From Bacteroidales bacterium (GTDB lineage: Bacteria; Bacteroidota; Bacteroidia; Bacteroidales; Muribaculaceae), in the NCBI GenBank assembly GCA_014800795.1, contig JAAVFL010000035.1, positions 6,869 through 70,868 of the forward strand: a stretch of 64,000 bases of DNA, in the 5' to 3' direction. How positions within the stretch are numbered: the first letter of the stretch is position 1; each line of letters opens with the position of its first letter. Shown in pieces: positions 1,112 through 23,437 of the stretch. Below the pieces are notes generated by a model. That model searched no databases and had not been told where the DNA came from. It worked only from the letters and a program-made list of their open reading frames with translations. Both the position numbers and the translations under genes were made by a program.

Positions 1112-1124
1112 TAATAATCTACTT

Positions 1125-2375: not shown

Positions 2376-2380
2376 TTAAA

Positions 2381-4762: not shown

Positions 4763-4768
4763 TGACTT

Positions 4769-5605: not shown

Positions 5606-6705
5606 TGAATGGAACTAGTAAGGGATTGGTAGGAGTGTTTGCTAATGGCACTCCTATCAGTACCATATATAACGGATTAAAAATAGTGTGGAGTAAGACA
5701 GCTTTAGCTCCAGTTAATCCTTATACTGGTTCTGTGGCTTTTGAGGTTGATACCCAGTTTGGAAATACTGTATATTTCCCTATTATTCCTTCTCACAGAT
5801 ACACTTCTAATACAGTATATGCTGAGGGCGTAATAGATTGGGGTGATGGCAAAACTACAAATTATTCTAAATCAACCAATCAAACAGCAGCAGCCAGAAG
5901 GATCAGCCACACTTATAACACAGATGGAAGATATACAGTAGTGTTTACTCCTTCTACAAAACACTATGAGATTAGTGATGGTGATTGGACTAAAAATTAT
6001 ATCAATCCGATTACTAAATTTCTGAGCTATGGAGATTAGGAAACTGCTATGTTTTATATGTACTATCCAAACTATATATCTTACTTAGCTCCTAATGGCT
6101 CTTTTGATGATAGACTATATATTAACTATAGCAGATATGAAGGTACTATGAATCTGGATAGTGTATTTAGTGTAGGAGAAAAGGCAGGATGTATTAGCTA
6201 TAGTAAAATGAGTAGAATAGAAGGTGATATGTTCAGGGGAAATACTAAATTAAAGAATGTTGGAAGTATTTTGATTTATAACGATAATCTAAAATATATT
6301 GAAACTCTTAATATTGCCACTGCTACCAGTGCATCTAACATTATCGGGCAATCCCCAGTAATGATAATTGAAACTGTTGCAATGCCTACAGCTTTGGATA
6401 ATATGGCTAAGATTTTGGATAGTGGATATTATAATGACAGCTCTATGATTGGAGAACTGAGATAGATGGAAATAACCAATATCAGTAGCAATAAAAATTC
6501 CTATCTTTATTTTGATGGATTAACTAACTGGGGAGTAAATTCAGATGAAGCTCCTAACGCCAGACAGAGCCTAGTTAAAAGCCTTCTAACTAATACTACA
6601 GAGAAAACTAGTGCTGTTAAAATCTATCTATCTGCCAACACAAAAGCACTCTTAACAGATGAGGAAATAGCACAAATAACTTCTAAAGGATATACTATAT
6701 TATGA
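5602..6705 (+). CDS. Hypothetical structural protein, possibly the distal or receptor-binding partner of the fiber. 2 in-frame TAGs.
   Basis: Three ORF-track pieces (5602-6039, 6049-6465, 6466-6705) share one frame. TAGs at 6037 and 6463. The stop TGA overlaps the ATG at 6702. Confidence 0.45.
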
Positions 6706-6932
6706 AACAAACTACATACACTACTAGGGTTCTGATTCCAGAACTGGGAAACTATATTACACAAGCTGAAGATGTTGATATTATACACAGAGTATTCTCT
6801 GAGAAGGTATTTCTAGCGGTTAATGATTCCCCTTCTAATTGGAAAGAAATTACAGCAGATGAAGCAGAGATTTTAATGGCTGCTCAGAAGGCAGCTCTGG
6901 AAGAGGAAGCTAATAAGGATGAAGCTAACTAA
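6702..6932 (+). CDS. Small acidic hypothetical protein (76 aa), with no in-frame TAG.
   Basis: Intact ORF translationally coupled (ATGA) to the upstream gene. I recognise no motif. Confidence 0.4.
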   Translation: MKQTTYTTRVLIPELGNYITQAEDVDIIHRVFSEKVFLAVNDSPSNWKEITADEAEILMAAQKAALEEEANKDEAN

Positions 6933-7092
6933 AGCAATTATAGACGGTAAGGAATACGATGTTACCGATAAACAAGCTCAACAACTATTAGACGTGCTAT
7001 CTGGTAAAATGGATAGCTTGGAAGAGAGTATGAGTAAGATGAGAGAACAGATGAAGGAATTTGTAGAATCATTTGAATGGCTGGAGCTATGA
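6919..7092 (+). CDS. Short paralog of the 'ITKINL' N-terminal module (57 aa).
   Basis: Hand translation: MKLTKAIIDGKEYDVTDKQAQQLLDVLSGKMDSLEESMSKMREQMKEFVESFEWLEL. Below the ORF-track size cutoff. The stop TGA overlaps the next ATG. Confidence 0.4.
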   Translation: MKLTKAIIDGKEYDVTDKQAQQLLDVLSGKMDSLEESMSKMREQMKEFVESFEWLEL

Positions 7093-7241
7093 AAATCACT
7101 AAAATAAATATTGACGGAAAAGAATATATCATTAAAGATAAAGAAGCTCAGATAGCAGTAGAAGAGCTGAGATCTAAACTTGAAGCTGTGGAGCAGGAAT
7201 TAAAATCAGTGTCAAAACTACATATAATTGAAGTAGAGTAA
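7089..7241 (+). CDS. Short paralog of the 'ITKINL' N-terminal module (50 aa).
   Basis: Hand translation: MKITKINIDGKEYIIKDKEAQIAVEELRSKLEAVEQELKSVSKLHIIEVE. TAATG overlap with the next gene. Confidence 0.4.
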   Translation: MKITKINIDGKEYIIKDKEAQIAVEELRSKLEAVEQELKSVSKLHIIEVE

Positions 7242-7762
7242 TGGATAATATCACTAAAATCAATCTTAACGGTAAAGAATATATAATTACCGATAATGAA
7301 GCTCAATTAGTTATTTAGGAGCTTCTTAACCGTATTGCTGAACTTGAAGATAAGACAGCAGAAGCTAAAGAAGTATCTGAGTTTACTAAGGGAAGTATCT
7401 TTGCTGGAGTAATGGATGAAACCGATAAGGATAACCCTATTACTTATGAACTCTTAGCTTCTCAGTTAATAAAGGATTCAGTGAATAATAAAGTATTTGC
7501 TAATACTGATAAACCAATTACAGTAAGATATGACTGGCTATCCGCTAAGAAAGAACTACCATTAAAAACCTTCCTTCTCTTAGTTCCTGCCACACATAAG
7601 AATCTTTATAGCCTATCTTCTCCTAGCCAGAACTTTGTAGGATGGGATGATGAATATACAGTAGTAACTATCAACTTCCCTACTGGATCTATGCAGTATA
7701 AAGTTTTCAGATTTGCTAACTGGCTGGTAAGATGCCAGAATGAAATTACCTATAAATTCTGA
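7241..7762 (+). CDS. 'ITKINL'-module protein with a distinct C-terminal domain (173 aa). 1 in-frame TAG.
   Basis: MDNITKINLNGKEYIITDNEAQLVI(TAG)ELLNRIAELEDK... runs in frame into ORF-track piece 7412-7762. TAG at 7316. Confidence 0.5.
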
Positions 7763-7767
7763 TAGCA

Positions 7768-8106
7768 ATGGAGATTACTAAGATCAATATAAACGGAGTG
7801 GAGTATGAGCTGGTAGATAAGTCTTCTAGAGAAACAATAGATAAGATCAATGAGCCATATATACCATATCCTAGAATACAGAAGGATGTGATAGAAGCTC
7901 AGAATATCAGTGATACTATCTTTGATGGCTTTAATGTAATGCCCTATACCTACTTCTACTTCACTTCCACTAATAAGGATAGAGTGCTTTATACTAAGCT
8001 GGGTAATACTTTTCATTAGAATTAGGTTTACCCAGTTAGCCACTTATCCAATAATGTAGATGAACTTGAAGAGGGAGAAGTTATTACTATCTACTATGGG
8101 AATTGA
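7768..8106 (+). CDS. 'ITKINL'-module protein (112 aa). 2 in-frame TAGs.
   Basis: MEITKININGVEYELVDKSS... extends past TAGs at 8017 and 8023 to a TGA at 8104-8106. Confidence 0.45.
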
Positions 8107-8299
8107 GTATAGTTATCTTCTGGATGATTATTTAGAGGATGAAAGAGTAGCCTTTATAGCTGCTGAAATGGAAACTTTAAGATAGATGGCTGCTATCTAT
8201 GATGGATCTGAGTATGCCAGAAGCTCAGATGATGAATAATCCCCTTTATGAGATTTTTAAGATTGTATCACAAATTACTGTAATATAATAAAGAAAAAT

Positions 8300-8875
8300 A
8301 TGGTAAGAGAAGTAAGAAACACTAATAACGAAATTACACCGATTTTACCAGAATCCAGATTAGTGAGTGGCTATGCTATTGTATTTAATTCGGATTCTAA
8401 TGATTTAGGTGGATTTACTGAGCGGATTAATCCCGATGCCTTAAATGGAGTTGTAGAGAAGTCGGATGTACTTTGTTTGCTTAACCATAATGAGGATAGA
8501 GGTGTATTAGCCAGAAGTAATAAGGGTGAAGGTAGCTTAACCTTAGAGATAGATGAAATTGGATTAAAATACTCTTTTGAAGCTCCTAATACTGCTCTGG
8601 GTGATGAGCTGTTAGAAGGACTTAGAAGAGGTGATATTTCTACTTCCAGTTTTGCCTTCACAGTTGAAAAAGATAGCTGGAGTAAGAATGAAGATGGCAG
8701 CTATCTTAGAACTATCAATAGTATCAGTGAGCTATTTGATGTATCGCCAGTGTATAGAGCTGCTTATGATGCCACTTCTGTAAAGGTGGATGCTAGAGGA
8801 CTGGATGAAATGAAGACAAAGGAGCAGGAAGAGCTAGCCAATTATTTTAATGAACTTAGAGCTAAATTAAAATGA
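8300..8875 (+). CDS. Prohead (capsid maturation) protease, HK97 family (S78/U35).
   Basis: SGYAIVFNSDSNDLGGFTERINPDAL...LLNHNEDRGVLAR...STSSFAFTV matches the HK97 prohead protease pattern. It sits immediately upstream of the MCP with an ATGA overlap. No in-frame TAG. Confidence 0.9.
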   Translation: MVREVRNTNNEITPILPESRLVSGYAIVFNSDSNDLGGFTERINPDALNGVVEKSDVLCLLNHNEDRGVLARSNKGEGSLTLEIDEIGLKYSFEAPNTALGDELLEGLRRGDISTSSFAFTVEKDSWSKNEDGSYLRTINSISELFDVSPVYRAAYDATSVKVDARGLDEMKTKEQEELANYFNELRAKLK

Positions 8876-10035
8876 ATAGTATTGAACTGATAGACAAAAA
8901 GGAACAGCTACAGATTAGAGCTAACGCTATTCTATCTGGTGCTGAAAAAGAATCTAGGAAGCTCAATGATGAGGAAACAGCTAGCTTCAATGAGATTCTT
9001 AAAGAGATAGAGCAAACAGATGAGGAACTTAGAAAGATGGATAACACTATAAATATTGACAATAACAATAAACAAATTAGAAAAATGGAAAAATTTTCTT
9101 TACTTAAAGCTATTAAGGCTGTAACTGAAAAGCAGCCACTTGATGAAAGAAGTGCAGCTATTGTAAATGAGGGTATCGCTGAAATGCGTAAGACTGGACT
9201 TTCTTTTAACGGACAGATTCAGCTTCCAGTAGAAGAGCGTGCTGATGTGCAAGCTACTGTAGCTACTGCTGGTATGGAAGCTGTGGCAACAGATAAACTT
9301 AATATTTTAGAGCCACTTCGCGCTAACTTGGTAATGGCTTAGGCTGGTGCTACCTTTATGACTGGACTTGTAGGAAATGTAGCTATCCCTATGTACGATG
9401 GAACTACTGTAGGTTGGGAAGGTGAAATAGACCCTGCTAAGGATGGTGCTGGTAAATTCTCTGAAATTGAACTTTCTCCTAAACGTCTTACTGCTTTTAT
9501 TGACGTATCTAAGCAGTTCCTACTTCAAGATTCTGTAAGTGCTGAAGCTATGCTTAGAAATGATATTGTAAAGGCTCTTTCTAACAAACTTGAAGCTACT
9601 ATTTTGGGTGATGCTGCTGGTACTAATAAAGTTCCTGCTGGTATCTTTAATGGTGCTGATGCTGTTACAACTCCAGATTATCTAACTACTGTTAGTATGG
9701 AGGAAACACTAGAGGAAGCTAATGTATATGGTGATTACTGCTATATCGTATCTCCTAAAGCTAAGGCACTTCTTCGCATTGCTAAGAAGGGTGATAATGG
9801 CTTTGTAATGGAGAATGGAGAAGTAAATGGTATTAAGGTACTTTGTACTTCTGCTGCTAAGGGTATGGTACTTGGTAATTTCTCTGAATATGTAATTGCT
9901 CAGTGGGGAGCTATTGATCTTACTATTGACCCTTATTCACAAGCTGTAAATGGCAAAGTAAGAATTATCATTAACGCTTACTTTGATGCTAAACCTAGAC
10001 GCTCTGAGGCTTTTGTAGCTGGAGTAGTTGAGTAA
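8872..10035 (+). CDS. Major capsid protein, HK97 fold, with an N-terminal coiled-coil delta domain. 1 in-frame TAG.
   Basis: Pieces 8872-9342 and 9358-10035 share a frame, joined through the TAG at 9340 (…RANLVMA(TAG)AGATFMTGLVGNVAIPMYDG…W.GE…). Position after the protease and a length of about 387 aa fit. Stop is TAA. Confidence 0.9.
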
Positions 10036-10062
10036 TAATTAGTGTTATAAATCGGTAGGAAA

Positions 10063-10086
10063 AGAGTAGGCGTAAAAGCCTACTCT
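10063..10086 (+). terminator. Stem-loop directly after the MCP gene (9-bp perfect stem AGAGTAGGC / GCCTACTCT, 6-nt loop).
   Basis: Inverted repeat read directly from the sequence. The downstream tract is only weakly T-rich, so it may be a partial terminator or a stabiliser. Confidence 0.4.
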
Positions 10087-10113
10087 GATTCTACTACTTA
10101 AAACGGATAGAGT

Positions 10114-10416
10114 ATGTATATTACATTGAGTAACGCAAAAAAGCATCTGCAAATAGATGATGATTATAAGGATGATGATGAATACCTTATAATGCTGATT
10201 CAAGTAGCGGAAGATGCTATAGAAGCTAATTTGAACACTCCTTTATCTTCTCTGCTAAGAAATGGTGTACTACCGAAATCTGTATATCATTCTATCCTGC
10301 TAATGATTGGTAATCTCTATTCAAATAGAGAGCCAGTTAGTTTTACTTCAGTTACTAAAGTGCCTTATACACTTGAATTTCTGTTAGCTACTTATAAACA
10401 CTATTATATACCGTAA
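10114..10416 (+). CDS. Head-tail connector protein (gp6-like / Phage_connect_1).
   Basis: MYITLSNAKKHLQIDDDYKDDDEYLIMLIQVAEDAIEANLN is the typical N-terminus of this family. Position after the MCP fits. No TAG. Confidence 0.75.
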   Translation: MYITLSNAKKHLQIDDDYKDDDEYLIMLIQVAEDAIEANLNTPLSSLLRNGVLPKSVYHSILLMIGNLYSNREPVSFTSVTKVPYTLEFLLATYKHYYIP

Positions 10417-10418
10417 AT

Positions 10419-10739
10419 ATGAGAGCTGGACTATTATCGGAAGTTATCTCAGTTGAAAAGCCAGTTACTATTACTGATGAGTTTGGAGCTAATTATACTA
10501 AATGGGAAACCTTCATAAGAAAGACAAAAGCACAAGTTACCTATACAAGCGGTAATAGGCTTAATGAGAATAATGAAATAATCTTTGCTTATGAAGTGGT
10601 ATTTACAGTGAGAATTTATCACCAGATAGATGAAAGAATGAGGATTATCTGGAAGAATAAAAAGTATCGTATATTATCCCTAGAAGAGAATAAACACCTT
10701 CAGACTTTAACAATTAAAGCGGAGCTAATCAATGAATAA
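10419..10739 (+). CDS. Head closure / head-tail joining protein (Phage_H_T_join-like).
   Basis: 106 aa in the canonical position. The pattern ...ITDEFGANYTKWE...AQV...IFAYEVVFTVR...RIIWKNKKYRILS is typical of this family. No TAG. Confidence 0.7.
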   Translation: MRAGLLSEVISVEKPVTITDEFGANYTKWETFIRKTKAQVTYTSGNRLNENNEIIFAYEVVFTVRIYHQIDERMRIIWKNKKYRILSLEENKHLQTLTIKAELINE

Positions 10740-11163
10740 CGTAAGTATTGATGATACTTCAGTACAAAATCTTTTTAATGCTTTAGACGCTGATTCTACT
10801 AAGTAGATCCTATTCACTGCTCTAAAGAAAGGTGGATAGAAGCTCACTAGCCAGACTAAGAGAAGTTTGAGAGCTAAATTAGGTGCTGGTGCTACTACTC
10901 CTAACAGATGGAACGGTAAGACGATGGAAAGCGGTGTAAGGCTTAAAGCTGATAAGGATTACTGTGAAGTATCTGTGAGTATATTAGGAGATTTTAGGCT
11001 GAAATTCTTTGAGAAGGGAACAGCACAAAGAAGGCTTAGAAGAGGTGGAGCTAACAGAGGTAGCATTAAACCCCTCAACTTCTTTAGAGAAGCTAGATAG
11101 CAGGATATAGATGAAACTATAAACAGTTCTATTACAGAATCATTAAGGCGTATTGAACGATGA
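10732..11163 (+). CDS. HK97 gp10-like tail-component protein. 3 in-frame TAGs.
   Basis: ATG 10732 is in frame with ORF-track piece 10867-11100. TAGs at 10804, 10837 and 11098. The TGA stop at 11161-11163 overlaps the next ATG (11160). Confidence 0.6.
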
Positions 11164-11525
11164 ACGGATTAGAAATAGGTAAAGCCATATATAAAGTGCT
11201 GGAAGGCACTACAAAAGTATATCCCTTAGTAGCTGATTAGGGTGCTGCTTTTCCCTTTATAGTCTATCGGAGAAGCGGACTATCACACGCTAACACTAAA
11301 GATAGATTCAGCTATTAGGAGCTGGCTACAGTAGAAGTAATTGTAGCTGCTGGTTCATATACTGAATCACTCCAGATCGCTAAACAAGTATTAGGCAGAA
11401 TGGAATATACTAGAGGGATGTACGAAAATATCAGCATATCAGAGATTAAGCTGGTAAATGCTGAGGAAGATTATATAGAAGATGCTTTTATACAAAAACT
11501 AACTTTTAATATTGAAATACTATGA
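11160..11525 (+). CDS. Tail completion / tail terminator protein (DUF3168-like). 2 in-frame TAGs.
   Basis: Hand translation: MNGLEIGKAIYKVLEGTTKVYPLVAD(TAG)GAAFPFIVYRRSG... TAGs at 11238 and 11316. The stop TGA overlaps the ATG at 11522. No piece of this gene reaches the ORF-track size cutoff because of the TAGs. Confidence 0.55.
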
Positions 11526-12010
11526 TTACAAAAGGTGGTGATCTTATGCTTTTCGTTAATGGAAAAGCTATCGCATACGCAACTAACCACACTCTTAGTA
11601 TCTCTGCTGATACTAAGGAAACTTCTACTAAAGATAGTGGTGGACTTTGGCAGACTTCAGAAGTAGGTATGTTAAGCTGGAGCTGCTCTAGTGAGAATCT
11701 TGTAGGTGATCCGATGGCAGGAATAGGATATGCAGAGCTTTATGATATGATGATAGCTCGCAAGCCTGTAACTGGTGTATTTGCACTTGAAGGTAACTCT
11801 ACTAACTTTGCAGAGGGTAAACTGGGTGCTGCTCCTACTGCTGGCTGGACTCCTAAAGCTGGTGATGGTTATACTGGATAGATGGTTATAACCAGCCTTG
11901 AAAAGAACGCCCCTAACGGTGAAAATGTAACTATTAAGGTTGATTTTACTGGTGTGGGTGAGCTTAAAAAGGTATCTGGAGCTAAAACCTTCTCACTGAC
12001 TGAGGGATAA
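11522..12010 (+). CDS. Major tail (tube) protein, TP901-1/phi13-like. 1 in-frame TAG.
   Basis: LFVNGKAIAYATNHTLSISADTKETSTKDSGGLWQTSEVGMLSWSCSSENL is typical of siphovirus tube proteins. It extends through the TAG at 11879 to a TAA at 12008-12010. Confidence 0.7.
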
Positions 12011-12127
12011 TTAGATTTGGGATTTTAATTAAGATAAAGAGAGGTTGCATTTTTTGTAAAAAAATACCCTTAGAAAGAGTAAAATAAATTTTTGCAACCG
12101 TGTGAGAATTAACTGAAACATAAGTAT

Positions 12128-12175
12128 ATCCCTTTATACCTTTGTTTAGAGGGTATAGAGGGATTTATTTTTAAC
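12128..12175 (+). terminator. Strong hairpin (about 13 bp, ATCCCTTTATACC / GGGTATAGAGGGAT) followed by a T-rich run, in the tube-chaperone intergenic region.
   Basis: Inverted repeat and the TTATTTTT tail were read directly from the sequence. Confidence 0.5.
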
Positions 12176-12185
12176 ACTAATCATT

Positions 12186-12485
12186 ATGACAATTACAATT
12201 AACAATATAGAGTATAAGCTGAAATATACTATCAGAGCTATATTTATCTTTGAGTAGATAGCTAAGAAGCCTTTTGAAGTAACTACTACCTTAGATAACT
12301 ACCTATTCTTTTACTGTATGATTCTGGCTAATAATCCAGATACGGCATTAGATTGGGATGATTTTTTAGATGCTGTAGATAATGATAAATCTCTTCTATT
12401 ACAGCTCAATGAGGTAATTATGAATTACCAGCAAAAGAATGAGCTGTTTAATGATGGTGGGGATAGCGGTGAAAAAAAAAGTTAA
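12186..12485 (+). CDS. Tail assembly chaperone (gpG-like). 1 in-frame TAG.
   Basis: 99 aa, immediately upstream of the tape measure. Ends ...GGDSGEKKS at TAA 12483-12485, just after an A9 slippery run. TAG at 12255. Confidence 0.75.
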
Positions 12486-12799
12486 GTGTATCTGAGTTAT
12501 ACGCTATACTTACACTTAGGCTACATTTTCCCCCAGAGTATGTACTGGATAAGATGGAGCTATACGAAGTAAAGGCTATTATGGATTATGAGTATTTAGC
12601 TTATAAAGATAGCTGGGAGCAATCCAGATTAGTAGCCTATATGATAGCCTAGACTAACAGCACAAAGTAGTTAAAGCTAACTGATATTCTTAAATTCCAC
12701 TGGGAGAAAGAAGATACAGATACTTCTATTTCTAATGCTGAGGTGGATAGATTAAGACAGAAGGCTAAACAATTTGAAAACATATTAAATACAAAATAA
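12186..12799 (+). CDS. Tail assembly chaperone frameshift product (gpGT-like), made by a -1 slip in the A-run at 12472-12480. 2 more in-frame TAGs in the extension.
   Basis: The -1 frame is open from the A-run to a TAA at 12797-12799 (…KKKLSVSELYAILTLRLHFPPEYVLDKMELYEVKAIMDYEYLAYKDSWEQSR…) and ends 1 nt before the tape measure ATG at 12801. Confidence 0.65.
12471..12481 (+). promoter_or_regulatory. Programmed -1 ribosomal frameshift slippery site (G AAA AAA AAA G).
   Basis: A run of nine A residues lies 1-2 codons before the gpG-like stop, with a long open -1 frame downstream. This arrangement is conserved in tailed phages. Confidence 0.7.
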
Positions 12800-12800
12800 A

Positions 12801-15635
12801 ATGGCAAACGATTATATAGTTAGGCTATAGGGTTAGGATAATCTATCTGGTACTATCCGAAATGTGCAAAGGAGTATAGAAGGACTGGGTGGAAGTGCTA
12901 ACCGATTAGACGCAATAGAGCAGAAATTTAATCGCATAGACCAATCTTCAGCACCACTTAGAAAGAAGCTGAAGGATGTGAAGGGAGAAATGGAAAAGCT
13001 AGCTGTAGCTGGTGATACTTCCAGTGAACTCTTCTAGAGAATGGCACAAGCAGCACAGAGGTATCAGCAAGCTCTAGACTAGCTAAACCAATCTACTAGA
13101 GGTGTTACTAATTCCAGTAACTAGATGAATAGTAGGCTGGGTGATCTTAGAGGTATCGCAAATGATATAGCTTCTAGAAGTGGATTCGGTGGTATTGCAG
13201 GGCAGTTAGGAGCATTAGTTACCCCTGCTGGAGCTGCTACTGCTGCTGTGGCTGCTGTTGGTGTGGTGATGGTACAAGCTGGTAAATCGGCTGCTGAATT
13301 TGAAACACACTTAGACAGTTTGCAATCTCTAACGGGATTGAGTGATGAAGCTATGAAAGATATATCTAAGGGAGCTGTAGATATGAGTAAGGAGTTTAAG
13401 AGTAGTGCCAGTGATATAGTAGATGCTATGAAGCTGATTGGTTCGCAAGCTCCAGAACTCCTATCTGATAAAGATGCTCTGATGGAAGTTACTAAGGCTG
13501 CAAACGTATTAGCGGAAGCAGCTTAGATAGAAGTAGTGGATGCAGCTAAGGGTATCACTACTGTAATGAATCAAATGGGTGTATCTGCTTCAGAAGCATC
13601 CAATATTATCAATACTCTGGCAGCATCTTCTTAGCAGGGTTCTGCTGATGTAGCCTATCTTAATAAGGCTTTTGAAAAGGCTGGTACTGCTGCTAAAGGT
13701 GCTGGTATGAACTATGTGGAACTATCGGCTGCTGTAGAAGCTATAGCACCTAAATTTAGTTCTGCTGATGTGGCTGGCTCACAACTTGCATCGACACTAT
13801 TAAAGCTATCTATGCAGGGTAATAATGATTTTAAGCCTGCTATGGTAGGTATGCAATAGGCTTTAGAAAATCTGGCTGCTGCTGAAATGACAGATAGCCA
13901 GATTAAGGATTTAGTAGGTGAATCTAATGTAACTATGCTGAAATCCCTTATAGAAGCTAAAGATACCTTTGCAGGGTACACCCAGAGCCTAGCAGGAACT
14001 AACACAGCCTTTGAACAGATGGCTATAAATAATGATAACTTTGAGGGTGCTGTTACTAAGCTAAAATCTGCTTGGGATGCTCTTCTAATCACTCTAGGAC
14101 AGTCTGGAGTATTGCAGGGTATAGCAGATGGAATAATGGATATTATGGGATTACTGAATGATATTATAAATGTAATCTCTGATGTTATAAGCACCTTTGA
14201 TTTATTTGGAACTGATGTAACGGATAACTGTAATATCTCTAAAATGCAGATAAGCCTTTTATCCGATATTATAAAGGGTATTGGTACTGTTTTACAGATT
14301 GTAGTAGCTGTAGCAGCTAAAGCCTTCAATGCTATTAAGGATGCTGCTACCAATGTAGCTAACGGTATTATGAATAAATGGAATCAGCTTAAAGGTACTT
14401 TGACTGATAACGCCTTTGTTTAGAATATTGCTAATGCTTGGACTACAATTTATAATAAGGCTGTAGAGATAATTGGTAAGGTTAAAAAGCTCTGGAATGA
14501 GTTTTTACAATGGCTGGGATTAGAAAGTAAATCTGCTTCTGTTCCTGCTCCAATGAAAACTACAGCGGTAACTAATACCAATACTACCACTTCTACAGAA
14601 CTTCCTACTAATACTTCTACTGGAACTGGTAAAGGCTCTGGTAAAGGAAGTGGTAAAAGCGGTACTAAATCTACAACCACTAAGCCAACTCAAACACCCC
14701 CAGAAGTAGGAAGTTTAGCAGCTCTGGAATAGGCTTATAGAAAGCTGGATGATGAGCTTAAAAACACAGTAGTATCTGATGAACGGTTAGCCGAAATTAA
14801 AGCGGAAAAATCAGCTTTAGAAGAGCAGATAAAGCAGCTCAAAATCAGAAACGGATTACTTGTAGAAAAGAAGGAAGAGCCTAAAGAGGTGAAACCACAA
14901 GCTAAAGAAGGCTCTTTAGCCTATGTGCAAAAGCAAATATCTGATAAATCGGCTGCTCTTAAATTGGAAGTAGTAGGTTCTGATGAATGGAAGCAGCTTA
15001 GTAAGGAGATAGCTGATTTAACAGACCAGCAGCACACTATTCAGATTTAGGTAAATGGTGAAGCTGTAAAAAGCCAGTTTGAATTAGCTGCTGAAGCTGC
15101 TGAAGCCTATAAGGAAAAGATGGCTGCTACTTAGGATGTAGTAGGTAATGTAGGTAGTGCTTTTAGCTCTTTAGGTGGTGCTATCGGTGGAACTGCTGGA
15201 AAGATGCTGGAAATGGCTGGATAGACAGCTTAGGCGGTAGCTCAGATGATTCCCCAGATTGTAGCTCTTATAGGTGCTAAGGAAGGTGAGGCTTTAGCTG
15301 CTGGTACTGCTTCTGCTGCTTCCCTGCCATTCCCTGCTAACATAGCTGCTATAGCTTCCATTATAGCTACTATTACAGCTCTATTCGCTTCCTTTGCTGG
15401 TAGCTTTGCCGATGGTGGTATTATCAGTGGTGGCTCTTTTCACGGTGATAAGATGCTAGCCAGAGTAAACGCTGGAGAAATGATATTAAATCCTAAGCAG
15501 CAGAGTAATCTGTTTAATGCTCTGGATAGTGGCGGTGCTACTGGTGGTGTGCAGAATGTAGAGTTTAAGATTAGGGGAGCTGAATTAGTGGGATGTACTA
15601 AGAACTATAATAGTAAGATGTCTAAGCTGAAATAA
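12801..15635 (+). CDS. Tail tape measure protein (about 944 aa, TP901-type core). About 14 in-frame TAGs.
   Basis: ATG 12801 and ORF-track pieces 13125-13526, 13887-14423 and 15246-15635 are all in one frame. The core reads ...AAKGITTVMNQMGVSASEASNIINTLAASS(TAG)QGSADVAYLNKAFEKAGTAAKGAGMNYVELSAAVEAIAPKF... There is a hydrophobic Gly/Ala segment near the C-terminus. Stop is TAA. Confidence 0.9.
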
Positions 15636-15641
15636 CTATAA

Positions 15642-15678
15642 TTCTGTTTGGTTATCTGTAATGGATAGCCAAACAGAA
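15642..15678 (+). terminator. 15-bp hairpin after the tape measure gene (TTCTGTTTGGTTATC / GATAGCCAAACAGAA).
   Basis: Near-perfect inverted repeat (one G-U pair) read directly from the sequence. The tail is AT-rich rather than a clean T-run. Confidence 0.45.
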
Positions 15679-15697
15679 TATCTATAATAAATAAGTT

Positions 15698-18133
15698 ATG
15701 TCTAAATATACTAGTGAGTTTACTTCAATAGAGAATATAAATTACAGAGTTGATATAGTTACTGATAAAGGTAGCACTACTGAGAACTTTGTATTAGGCG
15801 GTACACCCTTCATTACTCAGATGGATAGCGATGGTAAAACTATTTACGCTCCTATTAAATCAAGTGGAGCTACTATAGAAATGCTTACTTCTAAAATGCC
15901 TTTTGATTTATATAGTGGCAATACTAAGGGAGTTAAGGTAACACTTACTAATACTACTGCTAATAGAGTTGAATGGGTTGGATATGTTACACCGTGCGCT
16001 TATGATATGGGATTAGATGAAGAGAAGGAAGTAGTGGAGATTGAATGTGTAGATGGTATAGCAGCATTAAAAGATATGCCATACCGTTCTGCTAATAAAG
16101 ATGTAGATACCTTCTTAAATGTAGTTTTCAAATGCCTTAAAAGAGCTGGCTGTTATAAGAATCTGTATGTAACAGATAACGTACAATTCACTTCTAGCGG
16201 TACTGATTCCATAATGTCTAAGCTAAGAATATCAGAAGCTAACTTTTATGAAGAGAAGGATAGTGAAGCCTAGCCAGATGATTCTGTAGCTTGGAACTGT
16301 TACGATGTACTCTTTGAGATTATGTAGTATATGGGTTATACTCTTACTGCTGATGGAGAAGATGTATATATACTGGATTATGATGCTATGGTTAAGGGTA
16401 GAACTAAATACTTCAAATACTCTCTTACTGGCTCTTCTATCGGTACTCCTTCCACTGTAACCCTATCTTCCACTCAGCTTATAGACGGTAATTCACACGC
16501 TGAGAACGGAGCTAAGATTACTTTGGATGAGGTATTTAATCAAGTTACTGTAATAGATGAGTTTTATGAGATTGATAGCCTAGTAGATGGACTGGATAGC
16601 AGTAAGAACTACATTAACATTACAGCCAGTTATGATAATGAGCTGAAAAACTGGTTTAAGAATGATAGTAGGTTTTTAGAATCAGAAGTATTTACTGTAA
16701 AGAATAAAGCTGGAGTAGATGAGAGCTTTTTTGTTACTCTTACTAAGGCTGATGATGGTAAAATATTCTTTGTAGTAGGTAAGTTCTATGAGAATCCTAT
16801 GATTACCACTTATCACTATAGCCATAATGATAATAGAGTTTAGGCTTCTAATCTGTATGATCCTATGAAGTATTCAAGTATCTGGAATGGTAAGGGTGCT
16901 TAGGTGGTTGGGTACTTTACTAAGCAGATAGAGAGTAATAAGTACAATATCTGGAGAGCTAATATTACTTCTAATTGGGATGGATAGAGCAAAGATGTAA
17001 AGTTACAGCAGTTCGGATAGCTGGCTAATATAGCTAATATCGGAAGTAAGAAGCTGGTGAACTATATCCTTTGCCTTAATCAAGACACTAACCACATAGA
17101 ACACGATAAAGTTAGAAATTACCCCTTCTTTAAGATTAAGAAATCAGTACCTACTATCTTTGGTGGTGATGGTGGTTATATAGTGATTAAAGGAACTGTT
17201 ATTAGGCACTATATGTATAATGCTCCTTTTCCTATGAATGGTACTGTTTATAGGCATAAGGACACTAAGAAAACTTCTATCTATGCTAATGAAGGCTATA
17301 TATGGGCGCAATTAAAATGGGGTAATCACTACTGGAAAAATGAAGGTGATTATAAGTCTATGGGAGATTGGGTAACTACTCCAGCCTACTTTAAGATTTA
17401 CTATGGCGACCCTACAGCGGAACACCGTGTAGATGACTGGCAGGATAAGGATTCACCATTCTATAATAACTGTGGCTCTTTATGGGGTGTGGATGAGAAT
17501 GGCTATTATGTGCCAACTCCGCCAGATGGAAACCTTAACGGAGAAGTGGAGCTGACTATATTTGCCAATAAAGATACTAAAGGTAAATGGGCTAGAAATA
17601 ATAAGAAGGATAAAAAGAATAGCTATAGTGGCTATCCGCCTAAAGTTATGCTGTTTAAGGGATTGGATATTACTGTAGGATATTCTGATGATGCTATGAA
17701 TGAAGATGCTGCTTCTGCTGATACTTACTATTGTGCTGATAACTCTACTCAGGATAATGTAAGACAGATGGAAGAGCTGAAGTTTAAGATTTGTACTTAT
17801 GACAATAAAACCCCCAGCTATTCTACTGTAGATTATCTGGATAATGCAGGAAAGAGCCAGTACCTAGATAATACCTATAATCTGGCTACAAAACAGTATC
17901 TAAGGCAGGAACACCATTTAGTATATAAGCTGGTTAATCAGTACACAGAACCTAGAGCAATTCTAGAATTTAATCTAAAGAGATAGCTTAATATTAAACC
18001 TTACACTATTTTAACCAATAAGACTATTAGCGGAAGGAAGTACATAGTGCAGACTATAGGCAATGATTACCGATTTGGTATCTCTTAGGTTGAAATAATT
18101 GAAAAAGCGGATAATTACGATGCGATTGATTAA
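15698..18133 (+). CDS. Large distal-tail / baseplate protein (about 811 aa; Dit/Tal-like by position). About 8 in-frame TAGs.
   Basis: Pieces 15698-16273, 16331-16843 and 17057-17986 share one frame. The gaps contain only TAG (for example 16271, 16325, 16841, 17984). Stop is TAA at 18131-18133. It sits directly after the tape measure. Confidence 0.6.
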
Positions 18134-19220
18134 ATACGATGGAATAAGCGATAAGAGCGTTAAAGCCATATTAGGCAATAGTGGCGGTGGCTCTTCTAAT
18201 AGCTCTGATGTTGGCTCTAGAAGTGAATATACAGAGCTTAACAGAACTATCTGGGGTTAGGATGATACTGGGGATGATATAGATGGAAGTATGACTGTAA
18301 ACGGCAATATTTCTATTAAGTGTATCATACCCCCTTCCTATGAAGATGATGATTCTGATGATGGAGAAGATGAGGTATCAGAAGAAGGTGGTGGTAATCT
18401 CGATGTAGAGCTAAAGATTACTTCTAAGGATGTAGAAGCTAATAATATATATGCTACTGAGCATTTATATATACCACACCCTTCTACTAAGGCTAAGACA
18501 GATATAGTAGAGCTTCTTAAAGGCTATGATAGCAGGATTACCAATAACACAACTAACATAGCTTCCAATAAGACGGAAATAGACGCTCTTAAAGATAGAG
18601 TAGATACTGCTGAAACTAATATAACCAATCTGACTACTACAGTTAATAATCACACTACCAATATTAAGAAAAATGCAGATGATATAGCCGATTTACAGGA
18701 TAAGGTGGCTAATGGTGTGAGTGAGGATTATATTAAGCAGCTTATAGAATAGCTGGCTATCTCCAGAAATGGCAGCTACAGTAATCCTATTATTCTTATA
18801 TCTGGTAGATTCAGACGCTCTAGCATATCTGGAAGTAATTTCTACTTCTTTGATGGATAGAGTAACAATAATATGTATGTTAATACTGCTACTGCTGAAA
18901 ATGGACTTTTAACTATAAAGCTCACTTCTTACAATAATGCTAAGATTTATATTTCCAGCGTGGTAGTTACTTAGTATAAGTCTGGAGATACTACTGATGA
19001 GATTACCAATCCATATATTAAGGGTAGAAGTGATGGAGCGCACTGGTTTGAAGCCAGATGTGATAGCCACTCAGATACTAAAGAGATTTATATTAGGGAA
19101 TTTCACTAGGGAAACGGTGATAATGATACTTGGTATTCTGATAACTGGTTTGGTGATGGTGGAATTAGGCAGATAAATGTAATTGCTACTGGCTATATAA
19201 TAATTCCAAACAATGAATAA
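18120..19220 (+). CDS. Tail fiber / receptor-binding protein with a central coiled coil (about 366 aa). About 5 in-frame TAGs.
   Basis: ATG 18120 is in frame with piece 18291-18752. Contains an acidic stretch (YEDDDSDDGEDEVSEE) and N/T-rich heptads (TNNTTNIASNKTEIDALKDRVDTAETNITNLTTTVNNH). It extends through TAGs to a TAA at 19218-19220. Confidence 0.6.
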
Positions 19221-19935
19221 TATTATTAAAAGTGTACTGGGAGCTATATCTAATGGCTTAACTAAGCTGATTGGAGCAGTTAAGAGATACGGTATTATCT
19301 CTTCAGTTGTGGCTATGGCTTTATTTGTTGGCTCTTATACTCTAGTAATCAATCCTATCAGAGTGGATTAGATTGTAGAGAAGAGAATAGAGTATGTAAT
19401 GGAAAAAGAGAATAATAAAGCTGTAGAAGTTAGAGAGATTAGTATAGAGAAGAGATATAAGGCTGATGAGATTGTAGGTGATATTATGGTTAAGCTGATT
19501 GATAAATACGAGAATATTCAGAGGGTATTACTTCTGGAGAAGCACAATAGCCTTCAATCTATTAGCGGTGTAGATTTTCTATATCTTAGCTGCTCTATGG
19601 AAATGCTAACGCCTAACTCTACTCACTTAAATTATCTCAGTGAGGATTTACAGAAGCAGATAGTAGTGAATCTGATGGGTAATGATATGATAAACACTCT
19701 AAAGCATAGGGATTACCTATATTACCCAGATGTAGCTAGCTGCAAGCATCCTCAGCATAGGCTTATACACAAGCTGAGGGATGCAGGGGATAAGGAATGT
19801 GTGATTATTCCTTTTAAGGATGCTAATCATAGACCGCTCTTATTATTTGTGATTACTGGGTAGAATCTGGATGTAGATGGTATCACTGAATATATCCAGC
19901 AATTCAGTAAGACTATAGAGGATTGTCTGCTATGA
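19213..19935 (+). CDS. Membrane-anchored protein (one N-terminal TM helix), possibly a holin or lysis-associated protein. 2 in-frame TAGs.
   Basis: MNNIIKSVLGAISNGLTKLIGAVKRYGIISSVVAMALFVGSYTLVI... is followed by piece 19399-19863 in the same frame. TAGs at 19369 and 19861. The stop TGA overlaps the ATG at 19932. Confidence 0.5.
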
Positions 19936-20396
19936 AGCTGAGATTATATAGGAAGTATAAGAAAGCTACCTACAGTATAGGAAAGCTCTATGTAGATGGG
20001 GTGTACTTCTGTGATACTGTAGAGGATAAGGATAGAGGATTAACCGATAAGGATTTTCTGGAGAAGATTAAGGCTACTAAGGTATATGCTAAAACTGCTA
20101 TTCCTACTGGTACTTATAAGATTACTATGGGTGTAATCAGTCCTAAGTTTAGCCAGAAGCCTTACTATAAAGCCTTCTGTAATGGTAAGCTACCCAGAAT
20201 ACTTAATGTGAAGGGATTTGATGGCATACTAATACATAAAGGCTCTAATGCTGATAGCTCTGCTGGCTGTATCATAGTAGGTAAGAATACAGTAGTAGGT
20301 GGAGTAACTAATAGTTAGTTCTACTTTGAGAAGCTGTATAAGCTATTAGATGAAGCCTATAAGAAGGGTGAAACCATTGAGCTAGAGATACAGTAA
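19932..20396 (+). CDS. DUF5675-like / YkuD-like putative cell-wall enzyme (endolysin candidate). 1 in-frame TAG.
   Basis: The ILIHKGSNADSSAGCIIVG motif resembles the H-x-G...S-x-G-C active-site pattern of L,D-transpeptidase-fold proteins. It extends through the TAG at 20316 to a TAA at 20394-20396. Position is the end of the late operon. Confidence 0.5.
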
Positions 20397-20400
20397 ATGA

Positions 20401-20440
20401 AATCCTACATTCCTAAGTAGTTGGGGATGTGGGATTTTTT
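20401..20440 (+). terminator. Rho-independent terminator closing the late operon (13-bp stem with 2 G-U pairs, then TTTT).
   Basis: AATCCTACATTCC (20401-20413) pairs with GGGATGTGGGATT (20424-20436) and is followed by a T-run. Confidence 0.6.
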
Positions 20441-20455
20441 GTGTAATTTTGTAAT

Positions 20456-21358
20456 ATGGAAATAACAGTATATGAGGATAATTTAGCGGAAGATGGCTCT
20501 ATCATCATTGATAGATACATATACTTCTTTATAAATCAGCTTCAAAATAGGTGTGAGATAGACGGTAAGACCTATTTAGAAGGTGAAACTGCTGCTAATG
20601 CCTTTTTGAATAATGATCTAACACCTCAGTTATTCCATAATCTAGGATTTGATAAATGGGTAAAGGATGATGATTTAGATAAGCTCCACAAAGAAATTAA
20701 GGCAAATGGTATGAAACTATGCCCCTTAAACTTCTTTACCCTTTGCCAGTATATTCTCACTATAATAAAAGAGCAATATTTTATACTTCTGAAGCCTACT
20801 ATAGCTGATACCCTATCTGAGCTATCAGATGTAGCTTCTATTACTTTTACTAATGCTGATGGCAGTAGTATCAGCTCCAATAATTCAGAGTTAGTAAAGA
20901 TGGTGATGGATTGTGTGAAAGATGTGGGTGATAAGAAGTATGAAGCTGATAGTTTTGTGAGAGTGGATAGAATCACTGATAAGATTCTTATTCAATCCAG
21001 CTTTGCCTATTATGTGGCTCTATTCCTAAAAGAATACTTCAAGGATTACCCTAGAAGGAGTAACTGCTGTATGGTATCTGCAACGGAGCAGAAGCTAATT
21101 CTTTATATGCTCTACTTTTTTGGATTAGCACCAGCTCCTTTAACGGATTCAAGGTTTAGGCAGTTGATAGCGTACTATAAGGAACACCAAACTAGGGTAA
21201 GCTACTCAATACTTCCAGAAATCGGAGTAGTACCTATTGAGATTATAAAATATGGGGATTGGAAGGATGGTAATATAAAGCTAGACAAGCTGAAACATCC
21301 CTTAGAGGTTGGTGATACTGTTACTATTCCAAAGGGTGTAAAAATGGATATAAAATAG
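20456..21358 (+). CDS. Hypothetical 300-aa protein, a 'moron'-like insulated gene with no internal TAG. It is the only phage gene here that ends in TAG.
   Basis: Intact ORF. A TAATTTTG (TAnnTTTG) box at 20444-20451 lies 4 nt upstream of the ATG. Terminators flank it on both sides. I recognise no family. Confidence 0.6.
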   Translation: MEITVYEDNLAEDGSIIIDRYIYFFINQLQNRCEIDGKTYLEGETAANAFLNNDLTPQLFHNLGFDKWVKDDDLDKLHKEIKANGMKLCPLNFFTLCQYILTIIKEQYFILLKPTIADTLSELSDVASITFTNADGSSISSNNSELVKMVMDCVKDVGDKKYEADSFVRVDRITDKILIQSSFAYYVALFLKEYFKDYPRRSNCCMVSATEQKLILYMLYFFGLAPAPLTDSRFRQLIAYYKEHQTRVSYSILPEIGVVPIEIIKYGDWKDGNIKLDKLKHPLEVGDTVTIPKGVKMDIK

Positions 21359-21360
21359 GC

Positions 21361-21405
21361 AAAACTGTTAGTATGTATGAGGCTTCTACAACTAACAGTT
21401 TTTTC
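21361..21405 (+). terminator. Rho-independent terminator directly after the TAG of the moron gene.
   Basis: AAAACTGTTAGT (21361-21372) pairs with ACTAACAGTTTT (21391-21402). An inner TGTA/TACA extension lengthens the stem, and TTTT follows. Confidence 0.6.
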
Positions 21406-21406
21406 C

Positions 21407-21437
21407 TTTGATACCCCTTAATGCCGTTGTAATTTTG
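21407..21437 (+). promoter_or_regulatory. Bacteroidota-type promoter (-33 TTTG, 19-nt spacer, -7 TAATTTTG) for the ParB-like gene.
   Basis: TTTG at 21407-21410 and TAATTTTG at 21430-21437 match the published Bacteroides consensus TTTG-N19-21-TAnnTTTG. Confidence 0.55.
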
Positions 21438-21506
21438 CAGCCGTAAACATAATATTAACGGCGTGCCAGAAGCCTAAATAAATCCGCAAGGCAGCGGTAA
21501 AATTCA

Positions 21507-22397
21507 ATGCAGAAAGAAAACATAGTTCTTTCATCCCTCAACACTCTTCACAACGACGGCAAAGAAATCATCTTCATTGCCGTAAACCGTGAGACCCCTG
21601 CCAACTCCACCAACGTAAAGGGCAAGGTGGAAAGCCTAAAGCAGTATGGGGTTCAGATGCCCCTAATGCTTATCCCTGCTGGATTTGCAGCAGAGGAAGG
21701 GCTGGAGCTGGTAGATAATAACCTTACCCCAGTAACAGACGCACAGCGTATCAGCAACGCCTTTGTAATACTAGACGGAAACAACCGCTATAAGGCTTAC
21801 AAGGAAATCCAGAAGCAGCAGAAGGAAGCAGTAGCCAAAGGTAGAGCCTATGACGCTGGGAAAGGGCTGGATGATATTGTATGCTTCATCCAGACGGAGA
21901 AGCCAGAAAAAGGTGTGCTAAACACGCTGATAGAAGTGAATACCACTGCTATCAGTTGGAAAGGCGGTGATTATATCCGCACTGCTGCTAAACTCAACCC
22001 AGAAGATGCAGCTATCAACTGGGCAAACGAAATGTCTAAGGCAAAGATGAGCCTTAGCACTATAAGCCTTTTCCTTACCTTTGATTCTAAGCTGAAGCCC
22101 CAGACGGTAGCGGACTTCATTAAAGGGGGAAAGCTGGGCTGTAAGTGCAACGTAGAGCGGGCTAAACGTATCTACGAAACCTTTATCGCTGCTGGCTTCA
22201 AGCAGAAGGATATAAACAAGCGGTATCTTATCAAGTTTGTTATCAGTCAAGGCGAGGATCTTGGGATAGCACTTGAAGCCTTCAAAGCTCTTACTGAGGG
22301 GGAAGTACAGTATATCTCAGAAAACCTTAAAGACACTGGAAACCCCTTTGAAGCTGTGGAAGCAAGGATAGAGCAGCTTAAAGCCCAGAAGGGATAA
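21507..22397 (+). CDS. ParB/Srx-superfamily (ParB N-terminal-domain-like) protein, 296 aa, with no in-frame TAG.
   Basis: ...VESLKQYGVQMPLMLIP...FVILDGNNRYKAYKEI... resembles the ParB/DGQHR-type motif (DGxxR). It is visibly more GC-rich than the late genes. Stop is TAA. Confidence 0.55.
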   Translation: MQKENIVLSSLNTLHNDGKEIIFIAVNRETPANSTNVKGKVESLKQYGVQMPLMLIPAGFAAEEGLELVDNNLTPVTDAQRISNAFVILDGNNRYKAYKEIQKQQKEAVAKGRAYDAGKGLDDIVCFIQTEKPEKGVLNTLIEVNTTAISWKGGDYIRTAAKLNPEDAAINWANEMSKAKMSLSTISLFLTFDSKLKPQTVADFIKGGKLGCKCNVERAKRIYETFIAAGFKQKDINKRYLIKFVISQGEDLGIALEAFKALTEGEVQYISENLKDTGNPFEAVEARIEQLKAQKG

Positions 22398-22424
22398 TAA
22401 GGCTATAGGGGGTAAAAAATAAAG

Positions 22425-22455
22425 GAGCTGGTAGAGAAATCTACTGGCTCTTTTT
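22425..22455 (+). terminator. Terminator after the ParB-like gene (11-bp stem, GAAA loop, TTTTT).
   Basis: GAGCTGGTAGA (22425-22435) pairs with TCTACTGGCTC (22440-22450, 2 G-U pairs), then a T-run at 22451-22455. Confidence 0.5.
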
Positions 22456-23092
22456 GTTTGGTATGTTAAAGTAGGTTAAAGTCAAAGGTGGGGAGAATTA
22501 TGGCTGGTAGCTATAAATTTCTGATTATCAATATTGTTTAGCCTGTATAACTTTGATTGCCGTGTTGTAGAACGGACAACGCAGAGGCCTCGCGCAAAAT
22601 ATGCAACGCCATCCGGCACGAAGCTCACGCATCATAGCCGAACGAACATGATTACATATCCACAAAGGCGTCCGTCGCTGCCACATTCCTGACCGAGATT
22701 GAAAGTTGCGAAGTTTCTAACTGTCAAGAAAGAGCGCTAAGTAACGCTTTTCATATGTCATTGCATCCCGCCCCGTGCCCATATCGGGCCTCTGCAGACG
22801 ATATGCGACTGCAAATTTACGAATTTTTCTCAAAGTCCTACCATTCAGAGCCTCAAATATTCGGAAAACAAATCAAAATCTTTAGAATTAAATAAAATAA
22901 GTCTTAAAAATGCACCTCGCTTGTACCGTCCACAACAATAACTAACCTTGCCACCTCTCTGTTATGGTCCGCTTCTCTTTGGGAGAATTTAGCAGAAAAT
23001 AGCAAATATCAGAGAGTTGAGTGGTATAACCGCCTCCAAGCCCGGGATATGGGGGACAGGTGCCTCAGCCTTGATGATATGTCGGGAAATCC

Positions 23093-23140
23093 GGTACATT
23101 TTGTGGTACATTTTTGTGGTACATTCACGAAATCTGTACC
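23093..23140. repeat. Iteron cluster: three direct GGTACATT copies (23093, 23105, 23118; 12-13 bp spacing) plus one inverted GGTACA (23135-23140).
   Basis: Read directly: ccGGTACATTttgtGGTACATTtttgtGGTACATTcacgaaatcTGTACC. It lies about 180 bp from the 3' end of tRNA-Arg. Confidence 0.6.
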
Positions 23141-23274
23141 AAAGATAATGTGCTAAATCGGAACTAACAAATGCTAACTTTGGCTAACGGACGGAAAGCT
23201 GATTTGCGCTAAATCCTTATAGCACTGAGAATTACAAAATTACTAAATGCCGGCTGACAGTCGCTTACGGGCAT

Positions 23275-23310
23275 AAAAAAAGGCCACGATTTCGTGTGAA
23301 AATCGTGACC
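23275..23310 (-). terminator. Rho-independent terminator of tRNA-Arg.
   Basis: The CACGATTT / AAATCGTG stem (23285-23292 / 23300-23307) is followed on the minus strand by a T7 run (A-run 23275-23281 on the plus strand). Confidence 0.6.
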
Positions 23311-23316
23311 CTTTTG

Positions 23317-23390: not shown

Positions 23391-23437
23391 CCTTGCAAAG
23401 AAGTTTTGCGGTGCAAAGGTAATAATTAATTTCGGGA

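Follow-up and report, generated by a model that had tools for sequence, protein, structure and literature searches.

A conserved pair of TAG-free genes, one with a predicted ParB-type fold, at the right end of TAG-recoded Bacteroidales prophages

The stretch analysed here, hereafter the window, comprises 64,000 nucleotides of contig JAAVFL010000035.1 (assembly GCA_014800795.1, positions 6,869 to 70,868) from a Muribaculaceae bacterium of the order Bacteroidales. It holds the right-hand part of a prophage whose late genes read TAG as glutamine (Gln) and, behind these, two adjacent genes free of in-frame TAG, here termed A and B, which are the subject of this study (Table 1). The AT-rich part, from position 1 to ~21400, has a GC content of ~0.36 and codes solely on the plus strand, and from ~23400 onward follows a Bacteroidales chromosome with a GC content of 0.50, recognisable by dapA, thioredoxins, inositol monophosphatase and nagB. 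The late operon encodes the C-terminal part of the terminase, portal, head and tail proteins, the tape measure and a DUF5675 lysis-type protein. An initial annotation, made from the sequence alone, had proposed that A and B are translated by the unmodified host while the late genes are locked behind recoding; all the coordinates it gave were found to be correct. For comparison, the DNA loci of divergent members of the A and B families (numbered with an L) were set beside the window.

The recoding of the late genes is apparent from open reading frames (ORFs) of at least 100 aa on the plus strand of 1-24000, which total 4798 aa in the standard code and 6807 aa when TAG is read through, with fewer and longer genes, and no gain in ORF length was seen on reading through TGA or TAA. 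Across the late genes the in-frame TAGs fall in 6446 codons (0.87 per 100, close to the roughly 1 per 100 first estimated) and make up 27% of Gln-like codons; the genes end in TAA (14) or TGA (8), and neither codon occurs in frame. Most of these TAG positions stay TAG in the relatives, and where they differ the commonest replacement is CAG/CAA. This pattern, together with the TAG and Gln codons in relatives, shows TAG-to-Gln recoding rather than gene decay. For the host, TAG ends one of the 28 long genes in the window. The statement that A is the only phage gene ending in TAG holds for the called genes, however, it is partly true by construction, since in a recoded gene a stop and a TAG codon close to the end look alike. 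The late operon is closed, as first proposed, by a predicted hairpin (20399-20438; dG -24 kcal/mol, z -7.7 versus shuffled controls) with a T-run next to it; orthologous loci also have a hairpin after the late operon, with stem sequences that differ and co-vary.

Table 1. Genes A and B and the elements predicted around them, in window coordinates
Feature	Position	Strand	Remarks
Gene A	20456..21358	+	300 aa, acidic (pI 5.2), orphan family, no internal TAG, TAG stop (21356-21358)
Predicted -7 box TAATTTTG of gene A	20444..20451	+	4 nt upstream of the ATG at 20456; leaderless-type layout
Predicted terminator hairpin of A, AAAACTGTTAGT-N18-ACTAACAGTTTT, with T-run	21361..21407	+	Outer stem sequence-invariant across phages
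Predicted full Bacteroidetes-type promoter of B, TTTG-N19-TAATTTTG	21407..21437	+	Motif match, conserved position
Predicted 5' untranslated region (UTR) of B, ~65 nt	21438..21506	+	Partly conserved (...GCAGAAGCCTAA-AATC-GC...), by eye only
Gene B	21507..22397	+	296 aa, basic (pI 8.2), DGNNRYKA motif, no internal TAG, TAA stop, host-like GC3
Predicted terminator hairpin of B with T-run	22421..22460	+	Fold
TAG-to-Gln recoded late operon	128..20396	+	56 in-frame TAGs, 22 genes; stops TAA/TGA
Predicted intrinsic-terminator hairpin with T-run closing the late operon	20399..20444	+	Fold, comparative

Gene A begins immediately behind this terminator. The short distance between its -7 box and its start codon, and the same layout at the host GNAT gene (59666-60160, minus strand), where TAACTTTG is followed by CATA and ATG, were both confirmed in the sequence, and a TAnnTTTG box 3-4 nt upstream of the ATG recurs in 9 of 13 distinct A lineages, the distant L099 and L100 included. 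A canonical -33 TTTG is absent upstream of the box of gene A. Such a leaderless-type layout is unusual but known, as ~3.7% of Bacteroides thetaiotaomicron mRNAs have a 5' UTR of less than 10 nt (PMC7366714). In composition the gene is phage-like (GC 0.355; GC at third codon positions, GC3, 0.34 versus 0.29 for the late genes). Its AlphaFold model shows one compact alpha/beta domain (pLDDT 88, pTM 0.84), for which Foldseek found no fold match in PDB or BFVD (best E 0.2-0.3). No significant match to A was obtained in Pfam, PHROGs, NCBIfam or PADLOC, nor any match of its family profile among PDB sequences or of the protein itself by tblastn among 50,697 GenBank phage records, so that the initial description of a product without recognisable family stands. 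The family comprises 63 clusters among 5.8 billion proteins, with no Pfam domain recorded, and 81 clusters among 1.84 billion representatives in an exhaustive profile search, three of which carry N-terminal extensions, again without a Pfam domain. Its strongest motifs are LLKPTIxD, RRxNCCMVS..EQ and SRFRQL, and inspection of the sequence revealed no signal peptide, membrane segment or P-loop motif. In the alignment of A orthologs the final residue is the same throughout, and over 16 loci the stop codon is TAG in the window, L012, L014, L008 and L009, TGA in L103 and TAA in the other ten. As the orthologs end at the same residue with any of the three codons, the comparison indicates that the TAG of A is a genuine stop.

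Gene B is richer in GC (0.46), and its GC3 of 0.52 compares with 0.29 for the late genes and 0.52-0.59 for the host; in every lineage B is more GC-rich than its own phage. The full promoter, the terminator and the raised GC content attributed to B at the outset were all recovered. The full promoter motif has nine matches in the window against 0.76 expected from shuffles, only two of them in the phage part, and the predicted terminator hairpin (22421-22454; dG -22 kcal/mol, z -5.1 versus shuffled controls) is followed by its T-run. A structure model of B (pLDDT 88) retrieved in Foldseek, at ranks 1-29 among PDB entries, only members of the ParB superfamily (ParB, KorB, Noc, Spo0J, PadC, BrxU), the best with an E-value of 3.6e-3 and a probability of 0.99. 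The TM-scores are low (0.24-0.44), which is attributed to differences in domain orientation. The family alignment shows a ParB/Srx motif layout, NRE...NVKGK...LKxYG...P followed by DGNNRYKA (DGQHRYKA in distant members). At the level of sequence families no significant Pfam, PHROGs, NCBIfam or PADLOC match was found for B (for A and B alike, none in PADLOC at E up to 1), its family profile matched no PDB sequence, and a Pfam scan of the family gave sub-threshold hits only (E ~0.01), to GmrSD_N for 2 of 32 members and to DndB for one. The family consists of 33 clusters among 5.8 billion proteins, with no Pfam domain recorded. The ParB/Srx-like label first given to B thus holds for the fold and not for a sequence family, and B is best described, on its predicted fold only, as a divergent ParB/KorB/Noc-like protein. 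The virulent B. thetaiotaomicron phages DAC16-23 encode distant relatives of B (28% identity), within a block of many tiny genes which we read as an early region.

Neither gene contains an internal TAG. At the late-gene rate of the window the probability of such an absence, taken per codon and per Gln site, amounts to 0.07 and 0.06 for A, to 0.076 and 0.014 for B, and to 0.0055 and 0.001 for both together, the last value being hypergeometric over Gln-like sites; 10% of late-gene windows of 300 codons are free of TAG, and none of 5851 windows of 596 codons is. The initial argument that about 600 TAG-free codons are unlikely to be due to chance therefore holds for the pair, though not for A alone. 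In ten lineages the late genes contain 0.9-2.5% TAG (27-61% of Gln-like codons) and A and B none; at each lineage's own late-gene rate, the probability of zero TAG in the two genes ranges from 6e-3 to 3e-7 per codon and from 7e-4 to 4e-10 per Gln site, values that are not independent, as the lineages are related, and hence were not multiplied. The distant L098 and L100 show the same TAG-free pattern, and when L104 is called in the standard code its late genes appear in pieces of 41-169 aa, while A (299 aa) and B (291 aa) remain whole. In all, the pair is TAG-free in at least 12 divergent TAG-recoded Bacteroidales phages, among which the identity of A falls to ~30-40%, enough divergence for TAGs to appear if they were tolerated. 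These sequence comparisons show that selection keeps A and B free of in-frame TAG, and the initial suggestion that the two genes are compatible with the standard code for a reason is borne out.

The pair is also constant in its surroundings. In most loci the order is tail and lysis genes, A, usually B and then the host junction, and at least eight different host flanks follow the pair, among them tRNA-Arg/dapA in the window, a CLC channel and an amylase, PFK and a nitroreductase, a Fic protein with CotH and an ECF sigma factor behind it, ABC-F and an M13 peptidase, and PolA. A occupies the same position in every relative examined, and a B-type gene is missing only in L015 and L017. Continuous DNA homology to the closest phages (L007, L012) stops at ~22455-22458. 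A related 36.7-kb contig, rebuilt from L026 and L007, has few genes of 100 aa or more without TAG: leftmost an N6-methyltransferase and a DUF262-HNH protein, then the small terminase subunit and two ~100-aa head genes, and rightmost A and B. Its early genes on the minus strand, and also a Dam methylase, are recoded. In two other relatives the left-end TAG-free genes resemble a restriction enzyme, an Abi-type protein and a lipoprotein, all of these left-end identities being assigned from sequence motifs rather than family scans. Across the related contigs the TAG-free genes gather mainly near the termini, with cargo to the left and A-B to the right, and are not scattered at random, as judged from the sequence; the random scatter that would have spoken against the initial proposal was thus not observed. 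The left-end cargo varies (L026 343-2524; L020 14-2404; L024 481-2991) and adjoins heavily recoded early genes, such as a 164-aa gene with 7-8 TAGs. No integrase was found in the related contigs, which end before the full left end.

The hairpin at the junction of A and B is no ordinary terminator. Two nucleotides after the TAG of A starts the hairpin that had been proposed there as a strong terminator (21361-21402; dG -18.5 kcal/mol, z -3.6 versus shuffled), followed by T6. Its outer stem (AAACTGTTAG / CTAACAGTTT), the T-run and the TTTG-N19-TAnnTTTGCA promoter of B keep constant sequence and spacing in 13 units from divergent phages, in which AACTGTTA(G)...CTAACA(G)TT is invariant, and the A proteins of phages sharing this constant junction are only 40% identical. 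The inner stem and loop vary between units, the outer stem shows one compensatory CG-to-GC change (in L008), and the position and -7 box of the B promoter are kept in all orthologous units. The inverted repeat AACTGTTAG...CTAACAGTT, just upstream of the B promoter, is likewise invariant, and the same DNA folds as the terminator of A. Among 102 loci the full repeat occurs at the A-B junction only, and in a search of the window for further palindrome copies that might serve as operators CTGTTAG was not enriched. The right arm persists without the left one in L016, its distance to the -33 box being fixed. In the simplest reading of these units the element is shared, the 3' arm of the terminator probably doubling as a promoter/operator element of B: the right arm CTAACAGTTTTTT, whose spacing to the -33 and -7 boxes is constant, would act both as an arm of the A terminator and as an upstream element of B. 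Reading the hairpin as integron attC-like was rejected, the order of its arms being the reverse of that in attC.

The TAG of A, 2-3 nt before the hairpin, might even sense the state of the code, with suppressor read-through melting the terminator and allowing transcription to run into B; if true, the dosage of B would be coupled to the code switch, but we regard this as very doubtful. Read-through past the TAG would cross the whole hairpin in the window and L012 and reach the 3' arm in L014. As a general mechanism such anti-termination was discarded, as TAG is the stop of A in only ~4 of 15 lineages and read-through in L008 halts before the hairpin. In L001 (10904-11365) and L014 (10904-11407) a 69-aa gene is inserted between A and B with duplicated hairpin-promoter units on either side, and in L013 (11273-12021) a 154-aa gene is inserted after B between duplicated copies of the terminator of B. 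From these arrangements the right end behaves as a hot-spot for cassette insertion.

The principle that recoded prophages contain standard-code genes is already published, and the general inference of the initial annotation, that of standard-code translation within a recoded prophage, repeats that model. Borges et al. (bioRxiv 10.1101/2021.08.26.457843) described, for Prevotella and Oscillospiraceae, the recoded Garnet and Topaz prophages, in which the integrase genes avoid in-frame TAG and can also use TAG as a legitimate terminator, and they proposed that two codes partition lysogeny from lysis. A and B are like these integrases in being genes of a recoded prophage in a standard-code host, in avoiding TAG across the clade, in being able to use TAG as a stop, and in that we infer for them what was proposed for the integrases, namely translation in the standard-code state of the host. 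They differ in that they are not integrases, lie at the opposite, lysis-distal prophage end and form a conserved pair of an orphan and a ParB-like protein with a predicted promoter and terminator each. The searches made retrieved no earlier description of this pair, which is uncharacterised.

Two further comparisons concern the single genes. The transcript of lambda cI from PRM is leaderless. As in that case, and in the short-UTR mRNAs of B. thetaiotaomicron (PMC7366714), the promoter of A would abut the start codon of a possibly prophage-expressed gene; in contrast to cI, the start site of A is deduced from the spacing of the -7 box only, and A is unlike repressors. With the CTP-dependent clamps ParB, KorB and Noc (PDB 6sdk, 7bnr, 8qa9, 7nfu), B shares, in its model, an N-terminal ParB/Srx-type domain followed by a helical domain, and in addition a basic character and a correctly placed DGxxR motif. 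It differs from them in an identity of only 10-13%, in the DGNNRYKA motif that stands in place of GERRxRA and in its partner, for neither a ParA-type (Walker ATPase) nor a KorA-type protein was found with B, and gene A matches no family or fold. In the clamp-type ParB members the GERRxRA arginine patch is the CTP-binding motif, and parS and OB sites often lie directly upstream of ParB/KorB-type genes. The palindrome found in this place before B may be a candidate for such a site, but the same DNA folds as the terminator of A and does not strictly follow the presence of B.

Considering these results together, we hold, with moderate confidence, that A and B probably constitute a conserved two-gene module at the right (lysis-distal) end of TAG-to-Gln recoded temperate Bacteroidales siphoviruses, which can be read in the standard code and would be translated before the switch of code. 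At the level of motif and fold, each gene appears to be a transcription unit of its own with promoter-like and terminator-like elements. Both would be translated while TAG is a stop, either during lysogeny or at the onset of infection or induction, ahead of suppressor action, or at both times. B may be a DNA-binding protein of the ParB/KorB type, acting on phage or host DNA in regulation or maintenance, and A its co-conserved partner. That the pair and its invariant palindrome make up a new ParB/KorB-type lysogeny or immunity module, in place of a CI-type repressor in these phages, is conceivable but very doubtful.

Several observations weigh against this interpretation. A alone is not significantly depleted of TAG in the window (P ~0.06-0.07), and the relatedness of the lineages limits what their separate probabilities add. 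A few late genes of the window are TAG-free too (one of 76 aa, one of 191 aa and two of ~100 aa), as is the small terminase subunit in the related contig UViG_93; the absence of TAG is therefore by itself no proof of expression before the switch. The promoters and terminators are predictions from motif and fold only. The link between the palindrome and B is not strict, since L016 has B with only the right half-site and L015, where a different gene follows A, still has both half-sites without B. B lacks a Pfam ParBc match as well as the GERRxRA patch, of which only one arginine is kept in the equivalent DGNNRYKA. Finally, the window does not extend to the left end of the prophage and to whatever integrase, repressor or suppressor tRNA may lie there.

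The same data can be read differently. A and B might be early lytic genes, free of TAG as they are translated before the suppressor accumulates, and silent in the lysogen, a reading which we consider unlikely but still worth serious attention. The distant B relatives in the virulent DAC16-23, in a region read as early, lean towards early expression, the pair is core rather than accessory, and standard-code early genes are also predicted by the published model (bioRxiv 10.1101/2021.08.26.457843). However, the apparently early minus-strand genes and the Dam methylase are recoded in relatives, so that being early does not by itself require avoidance of TAG; moreover, A-B lies at the prophage end behind the late terminator, its promoter motifs match the published consensus of the primary Bacteroidetes sigma factor, and the GC3 of B is host-like.

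The initial annotation had instead seen A as an insulated moron, a candidate for lysogenic conversion, superinfection exclusion, defence or anti-defence. Morons, as known from lambdoid phages (Juhala/Hendrix), are single genes with their own promoter and terminator, located next to or behind the late genes and close to the end of the prophage, which can be expressed independently of the lytic programme and are sporadic extras of atypical base composition. The promoter box of A, the terminators on either side of it, its place beside the host junction and its TAG-free family fit this picture, as do the promoter-like and terminator-like elements of B, and the right end takes cassettes in some relatives (L001, L014, L013). 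Nevertheless, A is not sporadic: it stands at the same place, as part of a core module with B, in all relatives examined (the two loci without a B-type gene apart), its GC and GC3 are typical of the phage, and where B differs in composition it does so in every lineage. The acidic product of A, on inspection, has no signal peptide or membrane segment, and it matches nothing in PADLOC, Pfam, PHROGs or NCBIfam. With this core distribution and no defence-family match, the labels of moron and of defence or exclusion factor do not fit A and must be thought improbable; the small genes inserted around A and B in L001, L014 and L013 are better moron candidates.

Far less credible is the possibility that the TAG of A is read through and that the real product has 321 aa, ending at the TAA at 21419-21421. 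A database cluster representative (P0001, 98% identical) is indeed annotated with 321 aa, and several homologs (321, 332, 311 aa and others) have 'Q' at the stop position and then a tail. Yet these tails are unconserved, vary between +2 and +32 codons and correspond to the translated DNA of the conserved hairpin downstream, and most orthologs have TAA or TGA at exactly the last residue of A; the 321-aa form is, on this comparison, an artefact of calling contigs in a code with TAG as sense. That TAG is absent by chance, or that A and B are host or foreign genes abutting the prophage, can practically be dismissed, as the marginal probability for A alone, the share of TAG-free 300-codon late-gene windows and the host-like GC3 of B are outweighed by a TAG-free state in at least 12 lineages whose late genes reach 2.5% TAG and by a pair that travels with phage late genes beside at least eight unrelated host flanks.

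Beyond the terminator of B, a non-coding segment at 22540-22780 is conserved, which places the right boundary of the prophage beyond 22458. A -7-like box TAACTTTG (22548-22555) marks its start, and close to its end stands a small hairpin (22733-22752) with a T-run; the 5' part (~22521-22591) is common to L013 and L014 by BLAST, and the 3' part resembles L014 only by eye. The segment holds no ORF, tRNA or Rfam match (an Rfam scan of 20300-23500 returned the tRNA-Arg only), 22556-22760 folded as RNA is no more stable than shuffles (z +1.4), and a 15-base scan of viral contigs for the segment gave chance matches only. It could be phage-borne regulatory or attachment (att) DNA, or a small RNA gene. 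Between the prophage end and the tRNA-Arg, three tandem copies of GTGGTACAT(T) (23093-23124) adjoin a minus-strand promoter motif that is complete (TTTG-N20-TATCTTTG, 23140-23171), and these may represent arm-type recombinase sites or a small transcript. The tRNA-Arg(TCT) itself (23316-23390, minus strand) has its 3' end towards the prophage. In L015 a tRNA-Arg(TCT) (8511-8587), 88% identical to the copy in the window, lies directly ahead of a tyrosine integrase, behind which comes an A ortholog (56% identical), and from this order tRNA-Arg is a likely attachment site of the phage family. On the window side no integrase was found. The arrangements in L015 and in the window tie A to the att-proximal region in two different layouts.

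Some observations on the late genes and on tRNAs may be added. The last late gene (19932-20396), the DUF5675 gene, has weak YkuD and Tlde1 (L,D-transpeptidase-like) similarity, and its product is probably the endolysin; the single in-frame TAG of this gene agrees with the published proposal that recoding keeps lysis genes locked. A 793-aa coiled-coil late protein (2381-4762) has one TAG versus 6.9 expected per codon; as it has only nine Gln codons, the scarcity is nothing unusual when counted per Gln site. Inside the late gene 11522-12010 lies a full TTTG-N19-TAACTTTG promoter motif (11780-11810). In relatives with ~79% terminase identity (L019-L025; e.g. L020 5640-5712, minus strand) an amber-suppressor tRNA with the anticodon CUA lies upstream of the terminase. 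In the closest relatives (88-92% identity; L030, L031, L033, L035, L043) a tRNA with the G3:U70 alanine identity pair and anticodon AGC/GGC lies at a similar position, and a suppressor tRNA was found neither in these loci nor in the window.

For annotation, our results imply that calling a whole contig in code 15 leads to false C-terminal extensions, as in the 321-aa form of A. The locus is of interest mainly because A has an orphan fold, B is a divergent ParB-like protein and the terminator-promoter junction between them is invariant. Here TAG serves as sense and as stop in one genome, which makes a clean comparative case. The two uncharacterised families are candidates for what recoded Bacteroidales prophages need before the code switch, and the pair would be a second class of conserved standard-code genes, besides the integrases, in the published view of recoded prophages, where two codes may partition the life cycle.

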